In this document: piece after piece, positions 6,813 to 54,590 of the stretch
How positions within the stretch are numbered: position 1 is the stretch's first letter
Layout: every line of letters starts with the position of its first letter
From: an uncultured archaeon
GTDB taxonomy: Archaea; Aenigmatarchaeota; Aenigmatarchaeia; GW2011-AR5
NCBI GenBank assembly: GCA_964373695.1
Contig: CAYJVT010000003.1
Coordinates: 437-64,436 of the forward strand
Length of the DNA stretch: 64,000 nucleotides
Direction of reading: 5' to 3'
Notes under the pieces: generated by a model
The model's database searches: none
What the model saw: the letters and a program-made list of their open reading frames with translations, nothing else
What the model was told of the DNA's origin: nothing
Program-made: the position numbers and the translations under genes

Positions 6813-9800
6813 CTAACCCGCCCTCGTCATGTCTATGCCGAACACCTTTGATACGCCGCCCTCTATGGAGACGCCGAACACCTTGTCGGCTTCCTGTATC
6901 GTGATGTCGTTGTGACTTATGACTATGAACTGCACCTGAGCAGAGTATTTCTTTATGAGTCCGGCAATTTTCTTCGTGTTTGCCTTGTCCAGGGCGGCGT
7001 CTATCTCGTCCAGGACATAGAAGGGCGCGGAACTGTACTGCATTATAGCGAAAAGGAACGCAAGGGATGTGAGAGTCTTCTCGCCGCCGCTCATCGCATC
7101 CAGATTCACGACCCTTTTCCCCATTGGCGACGCCTCTATGACAAGGCCTGTGTCTATGTTGTTCTCCTCCTCCAGCCTGAGTATGCCGATGCCGCCTGTC
7201 AGGTCCTCGTATATCTTGGCGAAGTTCTCCCTTATCTTCACCATGACCTCCATGAACTTGTCGTACCGCCTCTTCTCGACCTCGTGAACTATCCTTAGTA
7301 TGGCGTCCTTCTCCTCAAGGAGCTTCTCCAGCTTTCTCTTCATCTCGTCGAACTCGACGCCTATCGTACCGTATTCTTCTATGGCCCTCATGTTTATCGG
7401 CCCCAGACGGTTTATCTCTATGACGCAGAAGCGGAGCTTTTCCTGGAGCTCGTCCACTGACTTGTCGTAAAATTCCTGGACGTCCCTGTACTCACCGAAC
7501 TCGATGCGAAAGTTGTCAAGCGAGGCTTCAAGCCTGGCCTTCTCTATCCTGAGCTTGCTCACCCTGCTCTGCTGCACTAGGCGCTGCTCATACAATTCCT
7601 TCCTTTTCTTCCTCATGCCGTCTATTTCCTTCTCCTCAGCGCTTTTTTCCTCCTGGAGCTTTGTCACCTCTTTCGTCTCCTCCTGTTCCTGTCCCTTCAG
7701 CTCTTCGAGCTTTGATTCAAGCCCGGAGACTTCGGCTTCCAGGGCGCCCTTTTCTTCTTCAGCCTTCGCGACATGGCCCGAGTACTGGTCGCCGGCCTTC
7801 TTCCTGTAGAACCCGCCTATTATGGCGCCGGACGCCTCTATAAGGTCGCCATCCAAGGTCGCCGCCCTGAGCCTGCCAAGCCGGCGCGCCTTGTCAAGGC
7901 TGTCCGTTATGACGGTGCTTCCAAGGACGTAATCCACAGCCGGAAGACAATCCTTGTTGAATTTCACCAGGTCCGACGCCCATCCGATATAGTCGCCCCT
8001 TACGTCCTTCCTCTTTCCACCCCTTATCTTGTTGAGCGGAAGGAAGCGCGCCCTGCCTATCCTCTTCTCCTTGAGCATCCTGACGCATTCCGAGGCTACA
8101 TCGTCGTCATCGACCACTATGTCGTCGGCATGCCTTCCCACGGCGACCTGTATCGCTATCTCGTACCTTTTGGGCACCGACAGAAGGGACATCAGCGTGC
8201 CCCTGATACCCGGATGCCCGAGCTTCAGAACTTCCTTGACAGCCGGGTTCTGCCTGCCTGCGGAAAGCTCCCTGAGCCTCTCCAACTCCCTGTCTATGAG
8301 GTCTATGCGGTCGTTTTTCCTTATTATCTCGGTCTGCATCCCGTCGATTTTCCTCTGTATGTCGTAGTTTCTGGACTTCTTTATCAGCTCGTCGCTCTTC
8401 CTGAACACGTTCTTCTCCTTCTTCTCGAGCTCCTTCTCCACAGACTCGAATTCTGATTCCAGCACGCCGAAGCTTTCCTCGCCGCTTTTTATTTCCGTAT
8501 CAATGAGCGAGTATTTCTCCTCTGCATCGGACAGTTTTTTTCTGACGAGAGATGCCTTTGATTTCTTCAGCTCGTCACTAAGCATGATATACTTCTCCGC
8601 CACTTCCTTCTCCTGTTTCAGCCTCTCAACCAGGCGCTGCTTCTCGGCGACGACTATCATGTTCTCCTTCACCCTCGATTCAACCTTCTCCAGCTCTATG
8701 GAGGCTTTCTGCTTCTTCTCGTCGAATTCGCTTATGCCCGATATCTCGTCAAGGATGGAGCGCCTTTCCTGGGCGGACATCTCTATTATCTTGGTGACAT
8801 CACCCTGCATGATTATGTTGTAGCCCTCGGTGAAGAGGTTGGCGTATGAGAGTATATCGAGGACTTTCGCCCTGGTCGTGTTGCGGCCGTTTATCTTGTA
8901 CACCGAGATGCCGCTCCTCGTTATCTTCCTCGAGACTTTCATCTCCTTCTCGCCTGGTATCTTGTCGTCGGAATTGTCCAGATACAGGGAGACTTCGCAG
9001 AAGTCCGCCGGTTTCCTGTCCCTGGCCCCGTTGAAGAGAAGGTTCTGCAGTTTCTCTGCGCGGATGCTGCGCGCCGATGTCGTGCCCAGGACGAATGTGA
9101 TGGCATCTATGACATTGCTGTTGTGGACGAAGAAACCGTTTGCAATATAATTATGTGTCTCATCTACAGTCAGATCATAAACCCACTCAGAAGGCTTGGT
9201 TTCTTTTATTTCTATTATCTCATCCCATAAGATGTCAGAATCTGCTATCAAAAGCAGCTGATTCATGAGTGCAGAAGCTCTGGGTGTTATAGACCCGTAT
9301 TTTTTGATTACTTCAACTATTTCCCTAATTCCGTTTCTGCTGCAGGCGCATCTATCTTCATAATATGCCGCAAGCTTTGGGCATTCAGACCTTGTTTTTT
9401 TGATGCTTATTTTACATTCTCTTACAAGCGATTTTATAATTGCGTTTATGTCCGGAATCGTATCAATGTTAGAATTTCTGACAAATTCAAGCCTTTTTAT
9501 TTTGTCTGCAGTTTCTTTTTTCCTGCCTTTTAGCTCTATATTTTCGATAAGGATTTTTAGAGATTCCCCATATACGTAGATAGAATGGTATTTTCTCTTT
9601 ATTTTTCGCTTTGTATTTGATGCATATTTTATTTTTTCCTTTATGACTGACAATATTCCAAGCCGAAGAAGCAGTTGCTGAATTCCTTCTGCAAGTTCTT
9701 TGCTTGCGGTAGAATATTCAAAATATGTCTGCCCTGATCCGAGGTTAAAGTAGCCGTCGCCTTCAAACAATGCCGAAAGGAAATTCTTTATAATATCACC

Positions 9801-10862
9801 ATCACATCTAAAAATTAATTCAGGAACGACTTTTTCTGACGAATTTGAGCCTATTTTTAAATCAAACGACTCTTCTAGCACTATTTGGAGTGGCTTTGAG
9901 AACAAAATAACGTCTTTTGTATCCCCTTTATACGAAAATACATTTGCTTCAACTCCAAGGTGATTTTTGCATATTTCGACGAAGTCCGATATAAGCTCCT
10001 CATCATCGTTTACAAACCATAACTGATTTGAATCCGTAGACCTGCCTTCTGATATCATGTAGCCAAGAAAACGGGCCATTTCGCTTGAAATACTCGGGAT
10101 TTTTATGGCTTTATTTTGGTTTTTTGATTTGACATTGTCTATATCTAACTTCAGTCTGTATTTATCTGAAAGCTTTTTCAAATAATCATGGCGAATAGAT
10201 CGACCATCGAAAAGCCCCTTGATTGCGGCATGTGGAATGCCGGATTCTTTGGCGAATTCTCTGTAGGTTAAATGTCTTTTCTTTATTTCCACCTTTATCG
10301 CGGTTTTTAATTCATCTGAATACGGAACATAAAGATTTTCAAAATTCCTTTGCGAAGATGAAAAAACAGATTTTTCAAATATTGGTATGATTCTTGGAAC
10401 AGCAATCCTCTTCCCGATTTTTATCTCTTCTGCCTTGAGAGAAAAGATGCCATTTTCATTAATGCCAAAGAAAGGATGATAAGGAGTAGCTATTACCTCT
10501 CTTCCGGAACGGGTTTTTATATGCAGCAGCTTATCCGGGGATTTTCTTTTTATAAATGCCTTTATCGGATGTGATGATATTTTAAGATTTTTGTCAAGCG
10601 TGAGTATTTTAGTTTCATCGCCTTCTCCGATAAAACCGTCTTCTATCTCCGAAACTTTTTTTGACTTTTCTAGTCTGCTTTCTACCAGTTTCCCTATCTT
10701 CACTATTCCGCCGTCTGACAGGGTAACAAGACTGTCATAATGGAGGCATTTTCCGGAGCCGTTCGGCCCTGCTATGACATTGAAACCGTCGGGGAAGGGT
10801 ATCATGACCTTTCCAGCGAACGACTTGAATCCCTGCATCGTTATCCTGTCTAATCTCACCAT
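6813..10862 (-). CDS. smc: Chromosome segregation ATPase SMC, interrupted by a 543-aa intein in the Walker A motif
   Basis: N-terminal FNVIAGPNGSGK then Cys plus intein, resuming SNVIDAITFVLG. Long Lys/Glu-rich coiled coils, hinge (GIRGTLMSLLSV...), C-terminal signature LSGGEKTLTSLAFLFAI and Walker B FYVLDEIDAALD. The extein is about 806 aa, normal SMC size. Confidence 0.9.
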   Translation of the reverse strand: MVRLDRITMQGFKSFAGKVMIPFPDGFNVIAGPNGSGKCLHYDSLVTLSDGGIVKIGKLVESRLEKSKKVSEIEDGFIGEGDETKILTLDKNLKISSHPIKAFIKRKSPDKLLHIKTRSGREVIATPYHPFFGINENGIFSLKAEEIKIGKRIAVPRIIPIFEKSVFSSSQRNFENLYVPYSDELKTAIKVEIKKRHLTYREFAKESGIPHAAIKGLFDGRSIRHDYLKKLSDKYRLKLDIDNVKSKNQNKAIKIPSISSEMARFLGYMISEGRSTDSNQLWFVNDDEELISDFVEICKNHLGVEANVFSYKGDTKDVILFSKPLQIVLEESFDLKIGSNSSEKVVPELIFRCDGDIIKNFLSALFEGDGYFNLGSGQTYFEYSTASKELAEGIQQLLLRLGILSVIKEKIKYASNTKRKIKRKYHSIYVYGESLKILIENIELKGRKKETADKIKRLEFVRNSNIDTIPDINAIIKSLVRECKISIKKTRSECPKLAAYYEDRCACSRNGIREIVEVIKKYGSITPRASALMNQLLLIADSDILWDEIIEIKETKPSEWVYDLTVDETHNYIANGFFVHNSNVIDAITFVLGTTSARSIRAEKLQNLLFNGARDRKPADFCEVSLYLDNSDDKIPGEKEMKVSRKITRSGISVYKINGRNTTRAKVLDILSYANLFTEGYNIIMQGDVTKIIEMSAQERRSILDEISGISEFDEKKQKASIELEKVESRVKENMIVVAEKQRLVERLKQEKEVAEKYIMLSDELKKSKASLVRKKLSDAEEKYSLIDTEIKSGEESFGVLESEFESVEKELEKKEKNVFRKSDELIKKSRNYDIQRKIDGMQTEIIRKNDRIDLIDRELERLRELSAGRQNPAVKEVLKLGHPGIRGTLMSLLSVPKRYEIAIQVAVGRHADDIVVDDDDVASECVRMLKEKRIGRARFLPLNKIRGGKRKDVRGDYIGWASDLVKFNKDCLPAVDYVLGSTVITDSLDKARRLGRLRAATLDGDLIEASGAIIGGFYRKKAGDQYSGHVAKAEEEKGALEAEVSGLESKLEELKGQEQEETKEVTKLQEEKSAEEKEIDGMRKKRKELYEQRLVQQSRVSKLRIEKARLEASLDNFRIEFGEYRDVQEFYDKSVDELQEKLRFCVIEINRLGPINMRAIEEYGTIGVEFDEMKRKLEKLLEEKDAILRIVHEVEKRRYDKFMEVMVKIRENFAKIYEDLTGGIGILRLEEENNIDTGLVIEASPMGKRVVNLDAMSGGEKTLTSLAFLFAIMQYSSAPFYVLDEIDAALDKANTKKIAGLIKKYSAQVQFIVISHNDITIQEADKVFGVSIEGGVSKVFGIDMTRAG
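9120..10748 (-). mobile_element. Intein with LAGLIDADG-type homing endonuclease domain inside the SMC P-loop
   Basis: Begins CLHYDSLVTLSDGG (block A) and has a TxxH block (IATPYHPFF). Two LAGLIDADG-like motifs (FLGYMISEGR, LSALFEGDGYF). Ends VYDLTVDETHNYIANGFFVHN followed by extein Ser. The intein DNA is markedly more AT-rich than the flanking extein. Confidence 0.85.
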
Positions 10863-10866
10863 AAAA

Positions 10867-11013
10867 TCACTTTTTCTTTTTCTCCCTCAGCTTCTCAAAG
10901 ACTGCATTGTTTATGAATGCTGCAACAGAAGGGTACTGGTATCTGTTCTCTTCCTTCCTGAGAAAGTTCTTTATCTCCTCGAGAAGCTTTTCATCAATTC
11001 TTACTACCGGCAT
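10867..11013 (-). CDS. Ribbon-helix-helix (CopG/MetJ-like) small DNA-binding protein, 48 aa; absent from ORF track
   Basis: Manual translation gives MPVVRIDEKLLEEIKNFLRKEENRYQYPSVAAFINNAVFEKLREKKKK. N-terminal beta-strand plus two helices typical of RHH. It ends 5 nt before the smc start on the same strand. Confidence 0.5.
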   Translation of the reverse strand: MPVVRIDEKLLEEIKNFLRKEENRYQYPSVAAFINNAVFEKLREKKKK

Positions 11014-11084
11014 CCCATCGACCTTCTGTTACACTTAGTTACTACAAATTACTTTATGTAACATTAAATATAAAGGCAACGGAG

Positions 11085-12386
11085 CTAGTAGATGTATCCC
11101 CAGGTCTGGAGCTTGTCCGAATCGTAGTACCATCTGAGGCCTATGTCCGTCCTGTAGAACATGTTGGGTATCATGATGTTATTCACCCGGTGATACGCCT
11201 GCTTCCTGGCGGCGTCCATGGTGCTGCCGGAGCCCGTGACAACGAGAGCGTATCCCGAATTGCCAGCCAGACGCCAGTCATCGTCCACGAACTTCACATC
11301 GCCCAGATGGATGCCGCCCATGTTGGGTTTCTTGAATAGTATGGCCGCGTCTTCAGAATAGCGCTTGAATGCGATAGGGTCATTGAAAGGAAACGGCGGT
11401 ACGGCAATGACGACGCCTAGCTGGAATCCTCTCTTCGTCTTCAAGTCGTATTTCTGCCTGCTTGCAATTGCATACAGAAATTCCCCCCACGGGCTGATAA
11501 CGCCTTCCATTACGATGCTTATATGTGGATAACCGAAACGCGACGTGAATTCGAGAGGATATATACCCTTTGAATTCACTATGCAGTTTATGTCGATATA
11601 ACCCACATATCCGCTCTCGGCAAGCTTTTCCTTCATTTTCAAAAGAGTTTGGTTGAATATCACATTAGGCTGCGAATAATACATGGATGTCCCCATCTCG
11701 CCAGTGCTGGGTCCTATCTCCCCAGGGAACATCCTTTTGTGCTCAAAATTTATGTTTATGGGAGTTATGAAATCCATGCCGTTGAAAAACGCTCCTATTG
11801 CAACCTCGACTCCTGAGGCGTATTTCTGGAGCTGGAAAATCTTTATCTTGTTGGACCAGTTCTTTTTGTAGTGCTCAAGGACCTGGATGACGTCCCTGCC
11901 GTCGTCTTCCTGTCCTATAAAGAGGAGCTCCTTCTCGTTCTGCGCAAGACCGCTGGGTTTCAATACATACCTTCCTGGACTATCCTTTATGAATTTTATA
12001 GCTTCCTCGAAATCGGTAAAATTCCAGTTTGGAAGCGTCATTATCCCCACCTTCTTCATCTCTTCCTGCCCGAATTCCCTGCTAAGCTCCAGTTTGTCGG
12101 TGTATGACGAACCGCCTATGACAAGCTTCCCCTCCTTCCTTAGCCTGTCAGCAATTTCCCCGAATTCAGTATCGTCAAATACTATCACGTCCGCCCAATC
12201 CGCATGCTCTTTCCACGAGTCCACCTTGTCAACAAAGCCATCGCATACGTCCCTCTGGTCCTTCTTAATTATGCAATACTTCACTTCATGGCCTTCTTTC
12301 TTTATCTGCCATGCAAGGTCGTTTATGAGAGCTTCATTTGAAACAAAAAGAAATTTCTTCCCACCGTTCTTCCCGTTTTTTTCCAT
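11085..12386 (-). CDS. PurD-like ATP-grasp enzyme (phosphoribosylamine--glycine ligase family), orphan
   Basis: ATP-grasp core with GEIGPSTGEMGTS, resembling the PurD GDxGPNTGGMG motif. No other purine-synthesis genes are nearby. The likely start is the internal Met (MEKNGKNGGKKFLFVSNE). Confidence 0.5.
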   Translation of the reverse strand: MEKNGKNGGKKFLFVSNEALINDLAWQIKKEGHEVKYCIIKKDQRDVCDGFVDKVDSWKEHADWADVIVFDDTEFGEIADRLRKEGKLVIGGSSYTDKLELSREFGQEEMKKVGIMTLPNWNFTDFEEAIKFIKDSPGRYVLKPSGLAQNEKELLFIGQEDDGRDVIQVLEHYKKNWSNKIKIFQLQKYASGVEVAIGAFFNGMDFITPININFEHKRMFPGEIGPSTGEMGTSMYYSQPNVIFNQTLLKMKEKLAESGYVGYIDINCIVNSKGIYPLEFTSRFGYPHISIVMEGVISPWGEFLYAIASRQKYDLKTKRGFQLGVVIAVPPFPFNDPIAFKRYSEDAAILFKKPNMGGIHLGDVKFVDDDWRLAGNSGYALVVTGSGSTMDAARKQAYHRVNNIMIPNMFYRTDIGLRWYYDSDKLQTWGYIY

Positions 12387-43097: not shown

Positions 43098-43454
43098 ATG
43101 TTCGGATTCCTGAAGAAGAAAAGAAAGGAAGAAATGGACGACTTCTTTGACATAAAGAATACCATAACCGGCAGGCAGCCAGAGCGGGACACCATAGATG
43201 CGGGCAGGGCCTTCACGGAGCAGAAGCAGGACGAATGGGTGCCGTCGTTCCCGGGAAGGAAGGACCTTGAGTTCGAGGATGTCGGTCAAGGCCCTTATGA
43301 AAAGGGATTCCGCGGACCTTCGAAGGACTATGATGTATTGCAGCGCTTGGACGTCATAGAATCGCAGCTTCAGGCCATACGCTCCCAGACCGAGACCATA
43401 AACGAGCGCCTGAAGAACCTGGAATTCAAGCTGACTGGCGGAAGAAGGTACTGA
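43098..43454 (+). CDS. Hypothetical protein with C-terminal coiled coil
   Basis: ORF only; the C-terminal heptad region is LDVIESQLQAIRSQTETINERLKNLEFKL. Confidence 0.35.
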   Translation: MFGFLKKKRKEEMDDFFDIKNTITGRQPERDTIDAGRAFTEQKQDEWVPSFPGRKDLEFEDVGQGPYEKGFRGPSKDYDVLQRLDVIESQLQAIRSQTETINERLKNLEFKLTGGRRY

Positions 43455-48191: not shown

Positions 48192-48686
48192 TCATGATTC
48201 GCCCGGAGGCGCGATGCCGAGGGCCTGCTGCATCTTCCGCCTTATGGTATATACGTTGTCCTTCGCGAACTCGAGATACATCCTTCTCTGCTTGTAGTAG
48301 AACGTCCTGTTGTAGGTCCACCAGAAGCCGCGCTGGACGAAGTTCGTCCACTCATACTTCGTCTCTACCGTCCCCTTGAACCTGATGTCCAGCCAGCCAA
48401 GCCTGGTCTTCATGTCCATCTCGCCCTGCATGATTATCCTTATATAAGTCATGGTCCACTGGTCCTCCTTCCTCTTCCCCATCCACATGCCGTAGAACGC
48501 GCGCGGGTCGGCGAACACGTCCCACCTTGCGTCTGTCTCAAGTATGTCCTTCGAGGAGATTTTCATCACATCCCTGAGGAGGCCTTTCACCATGTCGAAT
48601 ACCTTGAAGGTGTTCTTGCCCTCGTAATGGAGCTTAATGGTGTCTGCCGGAGCCAGAATATCGTCCACGATGTTTATGGTTCCCAT
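48192..48686 (-). CDS. Hypothetical protein, tandem paralog 2 (about 164 aa)
   Basis: C-terminal region (FWWTYNRTFYYKQRRMYLEFAKD) is clearly similar to the upstream paralog (FWHKLYYHKKRMEYLNFGKE). Start taken at the internal MGTINIVDD. Confidence 0.4.
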   Translation of the reverse strand: MGTINIVDDILAPADTIKLHYEGKNTFKVFDMVKGLLRDVMKISSKDILETDARWDVFADPRAFYGMWMGKRKEDQWTMTYIRIIMQGEMDMKTRLGWLDIRFKGTVETKYEWTNFVQRGFWWTYNRTFYYKQRRMYLEFAKDNVYTIRRKMQQALGIAPPGES

Positions 48687-48700
48687 GAAAACACGTCCTA

Positions 48701-49210
48701 CTACTGGTTTATCGTCTCTGAATAGTGCTTTATGCTGCTCTCGAAGCTTGTAATGACTTCTTTGCCGAAGTTCAGGTATTCCATCCTCTTCTTGTGGTAG
48801 TAAAGCTTGTGCCAGAATCTTCTCAGCATCTCGTAGAGTATGCTCTGCTGCCAAACGGTGTCCTGCGGGTATTCGGTTATGAGGCGCGGCTTTATCCTTA
48901 TTGAGACCTTGCCGTCGCCGGCTTTCGATGCGAATCCCTTGAGCTCCACCTCTATCGAGAGGTACGAATACCTGTCCAGTATCTTGTTGACTTCCCATTC
49001 GACCTCGAACTTGCTGGAGTCCTCTCCCCTGTCCCAGTCATACAACTTCTCCTGGACGTAGGCGTCAGGGACGTTGAAGACTGTCCTTATGAGCTCGTTC
49101 ACCTTCTTGTAGTAGGATTCGGCGTTCTTGGTGGTCATCCCGAGCTTTATGTCCTTGGCCGGCTCGAATATGTAGTCCCAGATAAGCAGTTTTGTCCTTG
49201 CCCAAACCAT
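48701..49210 (-). CDS. Hypothetical protein, tandem paralog 1 (169 aa)
   Basis: Homologous over its length to the downstream paralog; no known motif. Confidence 0.4.
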   Translation of the reverse strand: MVWARTKLLIWDYIFEPAKDIKLGMTTKNAESYYKKVNELIRTVFNVPDAYVQEKLYDWDRGEDSSKFEVEWEVNKILDRYSYLSIEVELKGFASKAGDGKVSIRIKPRLITEYPQDTVWQQSILYEMLRRFWHKLYYHKKRMEYLNFGKEVITSFESSIKHYSETINQ

Positions 49211-49235
49211 TCAAACACCTACATAGACTTTAGCC

Positions 49236-49613
49236 ATGCCTCCTTATAAAGAATTTATATTACGCAGGAAAATACTATTCATGCTAGAAGTGATTGGCGG
49301 CGCAATACTGATAGCCTTCGGGTTCTTTGCAATATTCATCAGTGCCGGCGAGGGCTTTTCCGACCCCAAAACCCTGGTGGTGATACTCGCGGGCGTTCTC
49401 GCCATCATAGGGGGCGCGTGGCTCATAATAAACACGCTTACGCTGGGGATAATACTGAGGAAGATAGCTGGCCTGATAATAGGCGGCATAGGGCTCTTCC
49501 TCATATTCGGCTTCCCTGACGTGCCCGACTACCAGCCGAACGACATGTCATTCACGGGCATCATAATAGGCTTCATAATGGCCATAATAGGCATTTACCT
49601 GATACTTTTCTAG
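49236..49613 (+). CDS. Membrane protein (4 predicted TM)
   Basis: Gly/Ile-rich hydrophobic helices. Confidence 0.35.
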   Translation: MPPYKEFILRRKILFMLEVIGGAILIAFGFFAIFISAGEGFSDPKTLVVILAGVLAIIGGAWLIINTLTLGIILRKIAGLIIGGIGLFLIFGFPDVPDYQPNDMSFTGIIIGFIMAIIGIYLILF

Positions 49614-49641
49614 AGAAAATTTAATATAAGGGCCCGCACAA

Positions 49642-51279
49642 ATGTATATTCAAGGTGTAAATATGGGAGATTACATACTCGGAGATTTCAGCAGGAACAA
49701 GGTCACCGGCGAAACGAAGGTGAATTTCAGGAGGGAGCTCCCGCTTGACAGGGCATGGTGCCTCACCCCCTTCGAGGCTCATGTCAGGATAAACTTCACT
49801 GGCCCCATAGGGAGCAGCTCAGGCATCTATTACAGCCTCGTTTTCCAGCTTGGCAAGTGGGAATACGTCGTCCAGAAAGCGGACGAATTCCTGGAAGTGT
49901 CGCCGGTCCACGGGACATACTACCAGCTGACATCAAAGCAGAAGGAAGACCTTGAAACCAGGATAAAGTCCGGTCTCGCGTCGGCGTCGCAGGCTGTCGC
50001 TGACATGGAGCTCCTCATGCACGACCTGAGGAAATACAGGGAATTCCTGCGCTACATGGGATACAGGACGAAGAAAGAACTTAATCCCCAATACAAGGGC
50101 AGCGACGGGGACGACATGGATTTTTCCGTCGACAGCGACGAGAAGAAGAGGAAGGACAAGGAGAAAAATGTTGATAATCACTCGCTGAAGGCGGTGTTCG
50201 TCGACCAGGTGGACATGCACACGGGCGAGGGGATATCGATGAGGAGCATAGTCAGCAGATGGCCCACGCTGATAACCGACTTCATGCGCATGGAGGACAA
50301 GGAACTGAAGCCGGAGGACATAATGAAGTCCCTGGACGTTTCGAAAGCCGAAGCCGTCGTCTTGTTAACGAAGAACAAGCTGTACCAGGAATGGAAGAAG
50401 CTCTTCCTTACCCAGCTGAAGGACAGGTACATCAGGATAGAGGAGCTTGTCCGCAGCAGAAAGAGTTCGATAGAGCAGTACAGGGAATGGCTGAAGCCCG
50501 TGATAGCGAGGCACAACATGCTTGCAGAAGGCTTGGGAACGCCGCAAGGAAGGGCCGCATGGAGGACGAATCCCATATGGGCCGAAGGCCAGGCGCTGTC
50601 GTTCTCCATAATAACTCTCTGGACGTGGAAGGACTTCCTGTCGCCTGAAATCTACAAGGGCGGGGCGGAAGACTACGCGAAGAAGCCTGTGCTCCCTGCA
50701 GGGAAGCCAATTGACAGATGGACTCTCGACAACCTCATATTCGGGAAGAAATGGGGCCTAATTAACAAGTATCCGTGGATAACGCTCGAATGGTGCCAGG
50801 ACAAGCTGAACCAGTTCCACCAGCCCACCGGCCCCACGCCCGGATGGCTGACGAGGAAGCCTTATTACTCGTTCTTCGAAATAGCGCTGGAGAAAGGCAA
50901 CGTGAGGCTGCCTGCTGGAGACGAGCTGGAGGACGGCGTCTTCGACGTGAACCTCATAGTGATGAGCAAGAACGTCCTTTTCGTGAAGCTGCTGGAGCTC
51001 GAGGCCAAGAAAGAGGAATTAAACAGATATGTGGACAGCCTTCTCGGCCTGAGGCGCGAGATTCCCGGCTCTGTTCCGGGCGGCCCGGCCAAAGACATAT
51101 GGGGGAACATGAGGAAATTTGCAGGCATGTTCCCTTTACAGCTCTTCAAGGGGCGGGGCCCGTACGAAAGGGATTTCGAGGACAGGATAACCAAATACTA
51201 CCTGGCGCCCATAGCCGGGGACAGGTACGGCCCGATAACAGGCCTGATAAAAAAGAAAGCCGGCTTCGGGGTGAAGTAA
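49642..51279 (+). CDS. Large uncharacterised protein (545 aa), first gene of a two-gene operon
   Basis: Long clean ORF with a Trp-rich C-terminal half (WTWKDF, PWITLEWCQDKL). The stop is immediately followed by the next ATG (TAAATG). No recognised family. Confidence 0.5.
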   Translation: MYIQGVNMGDYILGDFSRNKVTGETKVNFRRELPLDRAWCLTPFEAHVRINFTGPIGSSSGIYYSLVFQLGKWEYVVQKADEFLEVSPVHGTYYQLTSKQKEDLETRIKSGLASASQAVADMELLMHDLRKYREFLRYMGYRTKKELNPQYKGSDGDDMDFSVDSDEKKRKDKEKNVDNHSLKAVFVDQVDMHTGEGISMRSIVSRWPTLITDFMRMEDKELKPEDIMKSLDVSKAEAVVLLTKNKLYQEWKKLFLTQLKDRYIRIEELVRSRKSSIEQYREWLKPVIARHNMLAEGLGTPQGRAAWRTNPIWAEGQALSFSIITLWTWKDFLSPEIYKGGAEDYAKKPVLPAGKPIDRWTLDNLIFGKKWGLINKYPWITLEWCQDKLNQFHQPTGPTPGWLTRKPYYSFFEIALEKGNVRLPAGDELEDGVFDVNLIVMSKNVLFVKLLELEAKKEELNRYVDSLLGLRREIPGSVPGGPAKDIWGNMRKFAGMFPLQLFKGRGPYERDFEDRITKYYLAPIAGDRYGPITGLIKKKAGFGVK

Positions 51280-53016
51280 ATGCCCGCATACAAAGTGGGA
51301 ATATCGTCCGGATTCTGGAACATAGGGAAGGACCCGAACTTACTTGGATTAGCGCAGAAGGCCGGGGGCTTCGGGGCGACAGGCGGCATACAGTTCAACC
51401 AGGTCGACATGGAGACGATAAGCGAATTCCAGGAGCCCAGGCTCAAGGAAAACATGAAGAAGCTCAAGAAAGACCTCGGCATCGAAGTCGGGCTTCACGG
51501 AGAAATTGGCGAGACTTCGGGCTTCGAGAGCGCCATGAGGAAGACGTGGGAGCAGGTCCACTTCAGGCTTGTCACTACCATGAAGAACGCGGCAGAGCTA
51601 GGCTTCATCTACGTCAATTACCATTTATCGACGAACGTGCAGGTCCAGCAAGAAGAGGAGAGGCTAAGGCCTTTTGGCCACACCTATCAAATCGTGTCGC
51701 CAGAAGGCACACCCCTTGCGAATTTCATAAACGACAGAAAGGAAACTAAACAATTCGCCATAGACCACCTGATAGCCAGAGGATACAGCGTGGACGAGAA
51801 TCTCATGGAGGAGTGCCAGAAAAAGGCAATCGAGAATGCGGAGATGGAGGGACGGAAGGACTTTGATGAGTTCAAGAAAAGCGGCGAATACAGGAGGCGC
51901 ATAGAGGAGATAGAGGCTGCAGTAAAGGACGGAGTGATATCGAGGCAGGAGGGGGAAAGAAGAATACTGGAACTGGAAGATGGCACCAGAAACAGGATAA
52001 TAGCTGACAAAAGGGACGATGTTATCAGGAAACTGAGAAGCGGCGAACTCCCGAGCGGCGACACGCTTTTCGAAATGTGGAAGAAGTCGGATTTCGGAAA
52101 ATATTACGTCAATTTCGGCGAGATAGGGGCCTACTGGGCCGTGGCGCAGTACATGATAGAGACAGGCGACCTCCTGTGGACTAATGTCTTGAAATCCAAG
52201 AGAGTTCAGGACGCCTACAACAACGAGGTCAAGGAGTTCAACGAGGCCGTCGCGATGAAGTACATCGAGGGCCATCTTATCTTGAAGGAGCACCCATTCA
52301 ACAAGAAGTTCCTAGACGGCATGAGCGTGCTTGAATTCGCGAAGGAAAAAAACATAAAGATACTTTTCGAGAACCCGGAAGCGGGCCAGGGGAAGGAAGG
52401 GCTTTACAGACTGTACGACGTGAGGAGCGCTTACCACCTCATGAAGAAGATAAACTCGCCTGCTCTCCGCTTCTGCATAGACTTCGAGCACATGATGGCC
52501 CAGAACATGAACCCGTATGAAGTGATAAAGGACGTGCCGAGGGACTTCGGCAAGTACATTTTCCTCTTCCACCTGGGCGAGCCGAAGCCGTATTTCGGGA
52601 CAGCCCACATACCGATACCGCTGGGCTCCCAGGCGCAGGAAGTCCTGTACAAATGGATATACGAGCTGCGCAAGAAAGGGTTTGAGTCGGGGTACATGAT
52701 ATTCGAGAGAGGGGGCGGCAGGGCAGGCAACAGCAGGAGCAGCTTCGAGGTATTCGAGCACAGCGTCTGGGTGCTGAGGCAGATAGCCAAGTACCTGGAG
52801 ATGGACAAGGAGCCCGACGAGCTGCCGCCTGAATTCTTCGGCATATCAGAGCAGAACAAGGACGTCTATGCAAGGGAGCTCGTTGCGGTGAGGGAGCACG
52901 CCTACGACCCGCTGAAGGACCTTTTCATGATACCTGAGGAGGAGCACACTTTCTTAGGCAAGTCAGCACTTGATAAAGGGAAGGCGGAGCAGTGGGGCAG
53001 GAGAAAGTTCAGGTAA
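51280..53016 (+). CDS. Xylose-isomerase/Endonuclease-IV-like TIM-barrel protein split by a roughly 250-aa coiled-coil insertion (578 aa)
   Basis: N-terminal half-barrel GISSGFW...IEVGLHGEIGE...GFIYVNYHL. C-terminal half-barrel KILFENPEAG, FCIDFEHMMAQ, IFLFHLGEPKPYFGTAHIPIPLG, matching the AP_endonuc_2 metal-ligand blocks. Between them lies a charged helical segment (EEIEAAVKDGVISRQEGERRILELEDGTRNR...). Confidence 0.5.
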   Translation: MPAYKVGISSGFWNIGKDPNLLGLAQKAGGFGATGGIQFNQVDMETISEFQEPRLKENMKKLKKDLGIEVGLHGEIGETSGFESAMRKTWEQVHFRLVTTMKNAAELGFIYVNYHLSTNVQVQQEEERLRPFGHTYQIVSPEGTPLANFINDRKETKQFAIDHLIARGYSVDENLMEECQKKAIENAEMEGRKDFDEFKKSGEYRRRIEEIEAAVKDGVISRQEGERRILELEDGTRNRIIADKRDDVIRKLRSGELPSGDTLFEMWKKSDFGKYYVNFGEIGAYWAVAQYMIETGDLLWTNVLKSKRVQDAYNNEVKEFNEAVAMKYIEGHLILKEHPFNKKFLDGMSVLEFAKEKNIKILFENPEAGQGKEGLYRLYDVRSAYHLMKKINSPALRFCIDFEHMMAQNMNPYEVIKDVPRDFGKYIFLFHLGEPKPYFGTAHIPIPLGSQAQEVLYKWIYELRKKGFESGYMIFERGGGRAGNSRSSFEVFEHSVWVLRQIAKYLEMDKEPDELPPEFFGISEQNKDVYARELVAVREHAYDPLKDLFMIPEEEHTFLGKSALDKGKAEQWGRRKFR

Positions 53017-53360
53017 TTCCTGCAGCTTCAAGGCACTTTGCATATTCCTCATCCTCAGCTTCCGGAATATTGACGAGTTTAACCGGCGTAACACTCCATG
53101 AAATAGGCTCACATAAAAAACTTCGAATTCACACGCCACTACGTATACACCATGTTTCAGGAGAGCCTTTGCTCTGTGATTGCCGTTTGCTATTTCATCA
53201 AAGCGCGGATAAACCTCAATCCATATAGGATTTATTGCGCAGTATGCTAACAGTTCTTCTGCTCCCATCGAAAAGTATTTTCTGACCGTCCCGCACTTAA
53301 GACGCCTACTACGTCTTCTCCGCTGTAAACTTCCCTCAGGCCGAGATCCTTCAATGACAT
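52963..53360 (-). pseudogene. Frameshifted remnant of a ParB/Srx-like nuclease-domain gene
   Basis: Two adjacent reading frames give MSLKDLGLREVYSGEDVVGVLSAGRSENTF... and ...INPIWIEVYPRFDEIANGNHRAKALLKHG, resembling the ParB-type DGHHR core. The local sequence is AT-rich. Confidence 0.3.
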
Positions 53361-53420
53361 AAAATTGCTCTGGCTTTTGTATTTAAATACTAAATCATGA
53401 TAACTTAATCAGGTGTAGAA

Positions 53421-54590
53421 ATGGCTTCAAAAAAGAAATCCCAAAAGAAAGTCGCAGAGCCCAAATTAACAGACGAGAAAAAAAAAATGGAAGCCTACAG
53501 GCAGAAGCAATGGAAGCTCGCCGAGAAGTTCAAGGACGACGTTCTCCAGAAATACAAGAATATCGTGAAGGCCGTGGTGCTCTTCGGCTCCCTCACCAGG
53601 AACGACTTCCACGAGAAGAGCGATATAGACATGCTTGTAGTGATAGACGACACCACTGCAAGATTCACGCCGGAGATGAAGGACAGCTTCGACGACAAGC
53701 TGCATGTCATAGCGAAGGGGATAGCGGAAAACATAACAGTGCAGCCCGCGTGGACCTTAACAGAATTTTGGGACATGGCGAGGATAGGACATCCCCTGCT
53801 CTACACGATAGTGCGAGACGGATGGGCACTTTACGACACCGGATTCTTCATACCGATAAGGAAGCTCCTTGAGCTCGGCAAGATACCGACGACTCTCGAG
53901 GCGGTGGAAAAGTTCATGGAGACGGCGCCGCAGAAGATAAGCCGCGTCGAGACCGCAAAGCTCTACATGATAGCCGAGGACCTTTATTACGCGATGCTGA
54001 ACAGCTCCCAGGCGGTGCTGATGTACATGGGGCAGAACCCGCCCTCGCCGAAGCACACGCCGGTCGAGGTCAGGGAGTGCCTGGTCAACGCGAACCACCT
54101 GGAGCAGACCTATCTTGACGACCTGGAGAGCGTCATAGAGTTCAGGAAGAATGTCGAGCACAAGGATATCAAGGACATAACAGGCCAGCAGCTTGATGAT
54201 TACATACAGAAGGCCAAGAAATACGTTTCCAGGATGGAGCAGCTTCTGATGCAGCTCCAGAAGAAGAAGAAGGAGAATATAGTGCATAAGAACTACGAGG
54301 TCATGGTAAAGGCGACCGTGACGGCGCTGAAGAAGATGGACAAGCTGCCGCCGGACCCGAAGGACCTGCCGCATGTCATGAAGAGCGAGCTCATAGACAC
54401 GGTGAGGCTCGACCCCTACTACAACGACGTATTCAAAAAGGTAATAACCATGAGGAAGATGCTTGACGAGGACAAAGTTGCGGAAATACCGCAGCGAGAC
54501 ATAGAGATGACGCGCGAGTACGTAAGGAGATTTGTGCAGGACCTCAGGCACATTATCGATGCAAAGCCGAAGAAGAAGAAGGGCAAATAG
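53421..54590 (+). CDS. Nucleotidyltransferase-domain protein (Pol-beta superfamily minimal NTase plus C-terminal helical, possibly HEPN-like, region)
   Basis: VVLFGSLTRNDFHEKSDIDMLVV is the GS...DxD NTase motif. Long helical C-terminus with a candidate R-x7-H (RECLVNANH). Confidence 0.65.
   Translation: MASKKKSQKKVAEPKLTDEKKKMEAYRQKQWKLAEKFKDDVLQKYKNIVKAVVLFGSLTRNDFHEKSDIDMLVVIDDTTARFTPEMKDSFDDKLHVIAKGIAENITVQPAWTLTEFWDMARIGHPLLYTIVRDGWALYDTGFFIPIRKLLELGKIPTTLEAVEKFMETAPQKISRVETAKLYMIAEDLYYAMLNSSQAVLMYMGQNPPSPKHTPVEVRECLVNANHLEQTYLDDLESVIEFRKNVEHKDIKDITGQQLDDYIQKAKKYVSRMEQLLMQLQKKKKENIVHKNYEVMVKATVTALKKMDKLPPDPKDLPHVMKSELIDTVRLDPYYNDVFKKVITMRKMLDEDKVAEIPQRDIEMTREYVRRFVQDLRHIIDAKPKKKKGK

Follow-up and report, generated by a model that had tools for sequence, protein, structure and literature searches.

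A conserved gene cluster of Aenigmatarchaeota pairs an orphan protein with a split Endo IV-like TIM barrel

The closest described relatives of the enzyme considered here are small barrel proteins related to endonuclease IV (Endo IV). One of them, PF0258 (PfuAPE) of P. furiosus, is 13.5% identical to E. coli Nfo and is a functional archaeal apurinic/apyrimidinic (AP) endonuclease (Kiyonari et al. 2009, PMC2770678). The same study lists MJ1311 as the Endo IV homologue of M. jannaschii, and we found no demonstrated activity for MJ1311 in the literature, PF0258 being the only one of the two with an activity (PMC2770678). Here, we describe two adjoining open reading frames, ORF1 and ORF2, and the genes around them in a 64,000-nucleotide stretch of DNA (the window, by which we mean the whole stretch analysed) from an uncultured archaeon (GTDB lineage Archaea; Aenigmatarchaeota; Aenigmatarchaeia; GW2011-AR5; assembly GCA_964373695.1, contig CAYJVT010000003.1, positions 437 to 64,436 of the forward strand). 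ORF2 is a TIM barrel split in two by a long insertion, ORF1 has no recognised fold relative, and both belong to a gene cluster that is conserved across the phylum. The pair and the parts of ORF2 are laid out as follows.

49642..51279, plus strand: ORF1, 545 amino acids (aa) as called, isoelectric point (pI) 9.1; probably 538 aa from ATG 49663
51280..53016, plus strand: ORF2, 578 aa, abutting ORF1
51280..51714, plus strand: ORF2 residues 1-145, N-terminal half barrel b1-b4, with invariant H73, E75, N113 and H115
51715..52314, plus strand: ORF2 residues 146-345, helical insertion alpha4/beta5, from the AlphaFold2 (AF2) model and family alignment
52315..52890, plus strand: ORF2 residues 346-537, C-terminal half barrel b5-b8, matched by PF01261, with invariant E364, D401, E403, H431, H443 and E476
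52891..53016, plus strand: ORF2 residues 538-578 and stop codon, a tail with a predicted local distance difference test score (pLDDT) below 50 and a very conserved sequence

Scanning GTDB species genomes with an ORF1 profile returned 93 relatives, all of the Aenigmatarchaeota type, and 80 loci were kept. Cluster membership across these loci was mapped by tblastn and by unbiased ORF clustering, with frequencies counted over loci with room for the gene in question. The recurring order is paralogue B (minus strand), paralogue A (minus), a small transmembrane (TM) protein (plus), ORF1 (plus), ORF2 (plus) and a gene encoding a fused nucleotidyltransferase and HEPN protein (NTase-HEPN, plus). ORF2 directly follows ORF1 in 60 of the 66 loci with room, and the gap between them is mostly -4, -1 or 0 bp, which points to translational coupling. 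Both paralogues lie upstream of ORF1 in 53/62 loci with room, while NTase-HEPN is found no more than 8 kb downstream of ORF1 in 42/52. The identities of cluster members co-vary across loci (Spearman rho 0.78-0.87). Genes for YchF, a KH protein, S3Ae and DNA ligase are likewise syntenic in closer genomes, and the cluster order persists in deep branches (L047-L083) that no longer have the S3Ae and ligase genes next to it, as well as in the most divergent members, L084 and L085. We conclude that this is a vertically inherited, conserved cluster of five to seven genes, specific to Aenigmatarchaeota and their close relatives, with ORF1 and ORF2 as its tightly coupled core.

The original prediction for this DNA had proposed an operon-like pair of large uncharacterised proteins, at exactly the coordinates and lengths listed above and abutting at TAAATG, and had suggested that they form an undescribed functional module in an accessory-looking region. 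The survey bears out the pair, which is kept together across Aenigmatarchaeota-type genomes with short or overlapping junctions. The region itself is not accessory, since its GC content is unremarkable (0.50-0.53, the same as the remaining window) and the block is syntenic across the phylum. No housekeeping family accounts for both proteins, and our literature search returned no description of the cluster, nor anything specific on PF01261 in DPANN archaea; the cluster thus appears to be undescribed, as had been suggested. The nearest precedent is Module 128 of Castelle et al. 2021 (PMC8204110), a group of co-occurring, Aenigmarchaeota-specific families without a functional prediction. The orphan families of our cluster fit this description and may belong to Module 128, which is a phyletic co-occurrence set and not a gene cluster; the Pfam name of ORF2 was not found in the supplementary files searched.

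ORF2 homologues form 186 clusters at 90% identity, mostly full-length and 45-55% identical, with E values down to 0. Most carry a precomputed assignment to PF01261 (AP_endonuc_2), which in ORF2 itself is confined to residues 350-479 (E 2e-10; 41.3 bits, the cut-off being 31.1). The AF2 model, which like the invariant-residue columns described below rests on 39 homologues, reached a pLDDT of 86.3 and a predicted TM-score of 0.83. Its eight strands (4-9, 39-43, 69-73, 111-115, 360-364, 396-401, 427-432 and 471-476) form a (beta-alpha)8 fold that matched superfamily members with Foldseek TMt values of 0.65-0.75. Because the model spanned ~520 columns when aligned with barrels of ~290 aa, the ORF2 barrel is truly split, the insertion lying between alpha4 and beta5. 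When residues 146-345 were removed in silico, a single profile alignment ran across both halves; the native profile was disrupted by the insertion in hhalign comparisons with Nfo or the small barrels, which were informative only after its deletion. These results show that ORF2 is an Endo IV-like/xylose-isomerase-like TIM barrel split after beta4/alpha4 by a helical arm, and thus a new architectural variant of a known superfamily. A barrel divided exactly between its halves in this way is an unusual architecture among these enzymes. The original prediction had recognised the split AP_endonuc_2-type barrel from three motif strings, KILFENPEAG and FCIDFEHMMAQ among them, all of which are present in ORF2. 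It placed the insertion correctly, after the N-terminal half, and overestimated its length at about 250 aa; the insertion has about 200 aa, with a family range of 166-208.

The arm and the tail differ in how they are conserved. Three insertion helices (173-199, 202-216 and 222-254) are variable in sequence and modelled with a pLDDT of ~95, while conservation is retained further on, in the latter half of the insertion (260-345); only residues ~165-260 are variable and charged. The last 41 residues of ORF2 have a pLDDT below 50, yet are among the most conserved in the protein and end in W-x5-[FY]-R; the terminal W....FR is present even in L084, the most divergent homologue. This conservation in a segment of low predicted order makes the tail a probable docking peptide. 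A resemblance of the C-terminus to HbYX or PIP motifs was considered and dropped, as Lys or Arg, and not a hydrophobic residue, precedes the aromatic position and the Q-x-x-h spacing is missing. Separately, the N-terminus of paralogue A, VWARTKLLIWDYIFEP (49163-49210), resembles the stretch before the ORF2 tail, VYARELVAVREHAYDP (52864-52911, residues 529-544), and paralogue B has a similar I.I.DDILAP. This likeness, not significant by hhalign between paralogue A and ORF2 (E 0.19), could reflect a shared strand-type docking motif or chance. The L084 homologue (9263-11113) has two peculiarities of its own: H431 is apparently Asp, and an N-terminal glutaredoxin-like domain (PF00462, E 3e-10) is present that lacks CxxC and so offers no redox clue for ORF2.

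The residues that are invariant among the 39 sequences (H73, E75, N113, H115, E364, D401, E403, H431, H443 and E476) map to the C-terminal ends of the strands in the AF2 model. H73, H115, E364, D401, H431, H443 and E476 are kept or conservatively replaced in divergent homologues, and E364/D401/H431/E476 form an E-D-H-E metal tetrad at the C-terminal ends of b5-b8. Based on this pattern, ORF2 is probably an active metalloenzyme.

Comparison with MJ1311-type barrels gave the clearest correspondence. Against four such proteins of 262-269 aa encoded in Aenigmatarchaeota loci, whose best PDB relative is MJ1311 (E 5e-19), the insertion-deleted ORF2 profile aligned over 223 columns covering both halves (Prob 92.6, E 4.6e-7). 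His, His, Glu, Asp, His, His, His and Glu paired at all eight shared positions, including H73 and H115, each opposite a His, and AHIPIPLG aligned with EHLPIGKG. MJ1311 itself (3wqo), which shares the (beta-alpha)8 fold, had the highest TM-score to the ORF2 model, at 0.75. ORF2 differs from these barrels in being twice as long, with its ~200-aa arm and a conserved C-terminal extension of ~90 aa, in having T/A in place of the Asp of their 'DEH' motif, and in always being paired with ORF1.

With Nfo (PDB 1qtw), ORF2 shares the order and spacing of ligands, a D-x-x-H motif and an H ... H-x-P/L-G segment. In a poorly scoring HMM (hidden Markov model) alignment, H115, D401/H404, H431 and H443 stood opposite the Zn ligands H109, D179/H182, H216 and H231; H73 matched H69 by spacing (42 residues from H73 to H115, 40 from H69 to H109), and H115 aligned with the 'NIHPG' of T. 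maritima Endo IV. Of the nine Nfo ligands compared in this way (H69, H109, E145, D179, H182, H216, D229, H231 and E261), seven have apparent invariant counterparts in ORF2 and H182 corresponds to H404, which is H or Q; these pairings come from the low-scoring Nfo alignment, whereas the MJ1311-type alignment is significant. ORF2 is nevertheless far from the Nfo family proper (hhalign E 0.02): the TIGR00587 nfo model did not match native ORF2, and matched insertion-deleted homologues in only 2/8 cases at 13 bits, against a cut-off of 129.65. Where Nfo has the DNA-inserting Tyr72 and Leu73, ORF2 has G74 and E75. Endo IV models were the only sequence-level matches to the N-terminal half of ORF2.

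Compared with the ketose 3-epimerases (D-tagatose and D-psicose 3-epimerase), ORF2 shares the E-D-H-E tetrad at about 10% identity, and the epimerases have no insertion, tail or partner protein. In a global hhalign alignment of insertion-deleted ORF2 with the A. tumefaciens D-psicose 3-epimerase (PDB 2hk0), which also scored poorly, E364/D401/H404/H431/E476 lay opposite E150/D183/H186/H209/E244. At the remaining positions H73/E75, H115 and H443 faced T63/G65, A107 and an Arg. The epimerases have a mononuclear site with a hydrophobic sugar pocket at the b3/b4 ends, to which T63/I66 and A107 contribute; in this alignment ORF2 has the invariant H73/E75 and H115 there instead. NCBIfam epimerase and isomerase models (PsicseEpim, L-ribulose-5-P 3-epimerase and related) did not match ORF2 at E <= 1 with or without its insertion, while the neighbouring small MJ1311-type barrels did match epimerase models (1e-16 to 1e-18). 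Collectively, the ligand set leans towards a multi-metal enzyme nearer to the Endo IV type.

ORF1 homologues comprise 287 clusters at 90% identity, mostly full-length and 45-55% identical, again with E values down to 0; like those of ORF2, most are labelled Candidatus Aenigmarchaeota or Aenigmatarchaeota. ORF1 and ORF2 are thus both clearly genuine genes. An exhaustive search of 1.84 billion representatives with the ORF1 profile yielded 246 proteins; distant relatives with a source name came from Aenigmatarchaeota and from one metagenome-assembled genome labelled Nanohaloarchaeota. The latter is in line with a clade of Aenigmatarchaeota, Caliditerrarchaeota and Nanohaloarchaeota that has been reported (bioRxiv 10.1101/2025.08.05.668663). 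The start codon of ORF1 is probably ATG 49663 (MGDYILGD), because its closest homologues begin there and AGGTG is found 5 nt before it; further upstream, at 49620-49629, is a TATA-like TTTAATATAA. At the other end, the junction with ORF2 reads ggggtgaagTAAATGccc, with a Shine-Dalgarno-like GGGGTGA 5 nt before the ORF2 ATG.

As originally predicted, ORF1 belongs to no recognisable family: Pfam, NCBIfam, PADLOC and PHROGs searches were empty, as were single-sequence and profile searches of PDB sequences. Its AF2 model (pLDDT 79.4) contains long helices at 91-138 and 235-293, a conserved helical region at 144-231 with invariant D188, D191, H193, G195 and R206-W207-P208, and a beta-sheet assembled from N- plus C-terminal strands. 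Foldseek returned weak, repeated matches to START / Bet v 1-type proteins, which we discounted because their probabilities were just 0.02-0.1. ORF1 therefore has no recognised fold relative. In 7/39 homologues an N-terminal TM helix is followed by basic residues, which suggests that ORF1 is a cytoplasmic protein held at the membrane.

The other cluster members and nearby features in the window are listed below.

43098..43454, plus strand: small protein of 118 aa with a basic amphipathic N-terminus (MFGFLKKKRK), a disordered linker and a conserved C-terminal helix, located by tblastn
48192..48686, minus strand: paralogue B, 164 aa, pI 9.5, with ATG at 48686, 14 nt after the paralogue A stop
48701..49210, minus strand: paralogue A, 169 aa, pI 8.5, with AGGTG 5 nt upstream of its ATG
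49211..49280, no strand: divergent intergenic stretch with back-to-back TATA-like boxes, read from the sequence
49281..49613, plus strand: polytopic small membrane protein, 110 aa, from ATG 49281; the ORF call begins at 49236
52963-53360, minus strand: two small frameshifted ORFs (37 and 101 aa) in the stretch separating ORF2 from the NTase gene
53421..54590, plus strand: NTase-HEPN fusion, 389 aa, pI 9.1, matched by PF01909/PF18765, with Lys-rich N- and C-terminal tails

Paralogues A and B are 26% identical (E 5e-11). Paralogue A has a mean column identity of 64% in its alignment, falling to 41-43% in the deepest branches, and carries the conserved motifs MVWARTKLLIWDYIFEP, PRLITEYPQDTVWQQ and YEMLRRFWH..FYH.KRMEYL. 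It has no significant relative among PDB sequences or in Pfam (best E 0.45 and 0.015), its hhalign comparisons with ORF1 and ORF2 were not significant (E 0.038 with ORF1), and it showed no relation by hhalign to the small upstream ORFs of L084 and L085. Paralogue B matched nothing in Pfam, NCBIfam, PADLOC or PHROGs. The 268-aa ORF listed at 48192..48998 is over-extended: it overlaps paralogue A by ~300 nt in another frame, and its first ~100 codons are an artefact. Upstream of the paralogues, the divergent stretch contains two TATA-like boxes, CTTTATAAGG (minus strand, 49243-49252) and TTTATATT (plus strand, 49254-49261), which are putative promoters. The small membrane protein has several hydrophobic stretches, with a Kyte-Doolittle 19-mer maximum of 2.8, and homologues of 110-112 aa occupy the equivalent position in 33-42 loci.

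Unbiased ORF clustering also recovered a family of ~125 aa, with no Pfam match, whose minus-strand gene comes immediately after paralogue B in 37 loci (e.g., L002:4862-5248(-)). Its members have an amphipathic N-terminus (MFGFLKKKRK/MGILSRLRNFK/MGLFSKIFG), a Pro-rich linker and a C-terminal helix, DYD.I.RL..IE.QL.AIRSQTETINERLKN. The N-terminus resembles the membrane-binding helices of PspA/ESCRT-III-type proteins. The window copy is displaced by ~5 kb and is 66% identical over its C-terminal 47 aa (E 4e-14).

The NTase-HEPN protein retains intact motifs of both domains. In the NTase domain the GS...DxD residues G56, S57, D68 and D70 are invariant; in the HEPN R-x4-H motif, R242 is invariant and H247 is present in 31/33 sequences. 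It carries the JGI label 'nucleotidyltransferase / UPF0332 family', and the region beyond the NTase domain had relatives in 440 clusters, the top 120 at 72-94% identity. It is the best conserved member of the cluster: median identity across loci is 70%, compared with 53% for ABCE1, 55% for S3Ae and 60% for the DNA ligase in these same loci, and such conservation is unusual for a HEPN/MNT kind of protein. HEPN-MNT and KNTase-like proteins share with it the Pol-beta-type GS...DxD motif (kanamycin nucleotidyltransferase being the best PDB match, E 7e-8) and the following HEPN/UPF0332 region with R-x4-H. Unlike type VII HEPN-MNT systems, it is a single fused polypeptide with an extra C-terminal region and Lys-rich tails; it scored below the NCBIfam MntA cut-off (31 bits against 60), and it is found across the phylum, single-copy in most loci, behaving as a core rather than a mobile gene.

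Several arrangements around this gene stand apart from the common order. In four deep loci that also bear ORF2, the MJ1311-type barrels described above adjoin NTase-HEPN (L049:12873-13670(-), L076:13757-14554(+), L064:14411-15220(+) and L078:11495-12283(-)); ORF2 could derive from a neighbour of this kind that was duplicated and acquired an insertion, or NTase-HEPN could be a general partner of Endo IV-type enzymes. In the three deepest loci a Trm1-type tRNA (m2,2G) methyltransferase gene (PF02005) directly follows NTase-HEPN (L082:13993-15042, L084:12623-13735 and L085:13299-14417), an order that is possibly ancestral and hints weakly at a connection with tRNA. Two tandem NTase-HEPN-like genes (~263-289 aa and 376-381 aa) follow ORF2 in L073:11974-13973 and L082:12030-13953. 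In the window, the gap between ORF2 and the NTase gene is 400 bp, compared with usually 30-90 bp in related loci, and looks like a lineage-specific insertion or a decayed gene.

The wider neighbourhood consists of translation and replication genes (YchF-type GTPase, KH protein, ABCE1, S3Ae, DNA ligase and Lrp), and an Rfam scan of the whole window found no RNA families. Among the flanking genes named in the original prediction, the tandem paralogues, membrane proteins and NTase gene are real. The ParB-like remnant at 52963-53360 ('...IANGNHRAKALL...') was not confirmed, as the joined translation had no Pfam match at E <= 0.1.

We propose that ORF1 and ORF2 probably act as a complex, in which ORF1 would bind ORF2 at a fixed stoichiometry, with the helical arm, the conserved C-terminal tail or both as the point of contact, and position it near the membrane. 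ORF2 would have a centre of two or three metals, as in Endo IV and the archaeal AP endonucleases, and an enzyme with such a centre would be expected to cleave phosphoesters instead of isomerising sugars; we consider a phosphoesterase and an isomerase about equally probable. With NTase-HEPN, the module could serve as housekeeping on nucleic-acid ends, most likely of RNA or tRNA: the HEPN domain would cut, ORF2 would clean the 3' end and the NTase would add nucleotides. Nucleic-acid processing is plausible because the ligand set is of the Endo IV type and NTase-HEPN is a conserved neighbour, and our lean in this direction also draws on the motifs, Lys-rich tails and slow divergence of NTase-HEPN, the MJ1311-type neighbour, Trm1 and the basic pI (8.5-9.5) of ORF1, both paralogues and the NTase. 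A nucleic-acid substrate is possible on these grounds and somewhat doubtful. The combined reading, a stoichiometric ORF1-ORF2 multi-metal phosphoesterase in nucleic-acid-end housekeeping with NTase-HEPN, probably at the membrane, is our tentative choice and falls a little short of an even prospect.

A number of observations, both genomic and chemical, weigh against this proposal. The functional link to NTase-HEPN is weaker than that between ORF1 and ORF2, because the spacing from ORF2 ranges from overlapping to 5.7 kb and the gene has promoter-like signals of its own in this genome (a TATA-like box at 53380-53389 and AGGTG at 53411-53415). In one subclade (L060, L066 and L080, also L058 and L068), an ORF1 homologue of ~34% identity lies beside RNA polymerase subunit genes, and within these loci neither ORF2, the paralogues nor the NTase is found near it. 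The TM protein, the ORF1 TM anchors and the amphipathic small protein fit an envelope or lipid role equally well. As for the chemistry, Nfo D229 has no counterpart in ORF2, H404 is Gln in about 1/3 of the family, and the ligand correspondences to both Nfo and the epimerase come from alignments with low scores. A His/acid pair and a D/E-x-x-H motif are found in two-metal xylose isomerases too, so the ligand set is no proof of hydrolysis. The top 19 Foldseek matches of ORF2 were ketose 3-epimerases and a putative sugar isomerase rather than Endo IV, and in single-sequence hhalign the epimerase (E 7e-4) scored in the range of the MJ1311-type barrels (1e-4 to 7e-2) and better than Nfo.

These last points feed the most serious competing explanation, in which ORF2, tethered at the membrane by ORF1, would isomerise, epimerise or dehydrate sugars, polyols or sugar phosphates, and NTase-HEPN would be no more than a syntenic neighbour. 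Its role would lie in lineage-specific metabolism or the envelope, such as remodelling of glycans or lipid head groups or the processing of host-derived sugars. The E-D-H-E tetrad is that of an epimerase/isomerase metal site, the best Foldseek matches (8xiv, 2hk0) reached E values of 3e-6 to 1e-3 within the TMt range given above, JGI labels some ORF2 homologues 'sugar phosphate isomerase/epimerase', and the membrane context (the small TM protein, the anchors on some ORF1 homologues and the amphipathic protein) would suit such a role. The START-type matches of ORF1 would suit it as well, were it not that at their probabilities they carry no evidential weight. Against an isomerase stand the failure of every NCBIfam epimerase/isomerase model to match, the invariant His and Glu residues at the sugar-pocket positions, and the absence of recurring sugar-metabolism genes from the conserved block in the ORF clustering. 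On balance, we consider this explanation rather unlikely. The same membrane-related members, together with the long helices of ORF1 and the ORF2 arm, could instead belong to a membrane-associated structural or remodelling assembly (cytoskeletal, division or host-contact) whose functional elements are the coiled-coil ORF1, the small paralogues and the amphipathic small protein, with ORF2 mainly a scaffold or accessory enzyme. All of the families are lineage-specific, and the small-protein N-terminus (MGLFSKIFG/MGILSRL) resembles membrane-binding amphipathic helices. The catalytic residues of ORF2 are, however, invariant phylum-wide, which argues for catalysis, and most ORF1 homologues have no TM segment, making a structural assembly improbable.

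A different objection is that only ORF1 and ORF2 are functionally linked, the remaining genes being unrelated lineage-specific genes kept nearby by slow rearrangement in small genomes. The synteny of housekeeping neighbours in closer genomes, the variable gap between ORF2 and the NTase gene, the failure to detect the paralogues in L084 and L085 and the 5-kb move of the ~125-aa gene in the window's own lineage are all consistent with this idea. The five-gene order nevertheless outlasts housekeeping synteny in the deep branches, and the NTase gene follows ORF2 even in L084 and L085; we regard a pair without functional partners as comparably improbable. Defence, which the original prediction had raised, fares worst. 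HEPN-MNT pairs are classic type VII toxin-antitoxin modules, and an anti-virus or toxin-antitoxin island with the Endo IV-like nuclease and NTase-HEPN as effector and regulator would be in keeping with the match of the NTase domain to the PADLOC candidate PDC-S09 (E 5e-14) and to MntA/HalB-type NTase models. ORF1, ORF2 and both paralogues, however, had no PADLOC match at E <= 1, their best PHROGs match was not significant (E 0.034), and IMG/VR viral contigs contained no relatives. In at least 80 species the module is found at a single syntenic position surrounded by translation genes, its proteins co-diverge and its GC content is unremarkable. Its NTase-HEPN, a fusion protein, surpasses ABCE1 in conservation, quite unlike defence genes, which evolve fast and are patchily distributed. 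A defence function is thus largely refuted and very improbable.

Returning to the nucleic-acid-end proposal, a more ambitious and unlikely version of it would be a multi-subunit machine found only in Aenigmatarchaeota, in which a new-fold ORF1 scaffold, the paralogues and the membrane-binding small proteins hold the ORF2 phosphoesterase at the inner face of the membrane, next to NTase-HEPN. If true, nucleic-acid ends would be processed, repaired or scavenged by such a machine; they might belong, for instance, to the cell's own tRNA or to RNA or DNA that these nucleotide-auxotrophic symbionts take up from a host. To our knowledge, no organism has been described with a nucleic-acid-end machine of this kind.

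Although the genomes of DPANN archaea are tiny, a large share of their genes is lineage-specific and uncharacterised, and the roles of these genes are an open question about these symbionts. In a genome of ~0.9 Mb, the cluster described here occupies about 5.5 kb. New folds may be represented in ORF1 and the small paralogues, and the recognisable active site of ORF2 makes the ORF1/ORF2 pair open to expression and assay. That the gene order is kept across the phylum, and that NTase-HEPN diverges more slowly than ABCE1 and S3Ae, argues for an essential, lineage-defining function, and the cluster may serve as a genomic marker for the Aenigmatarchaeota lineage.

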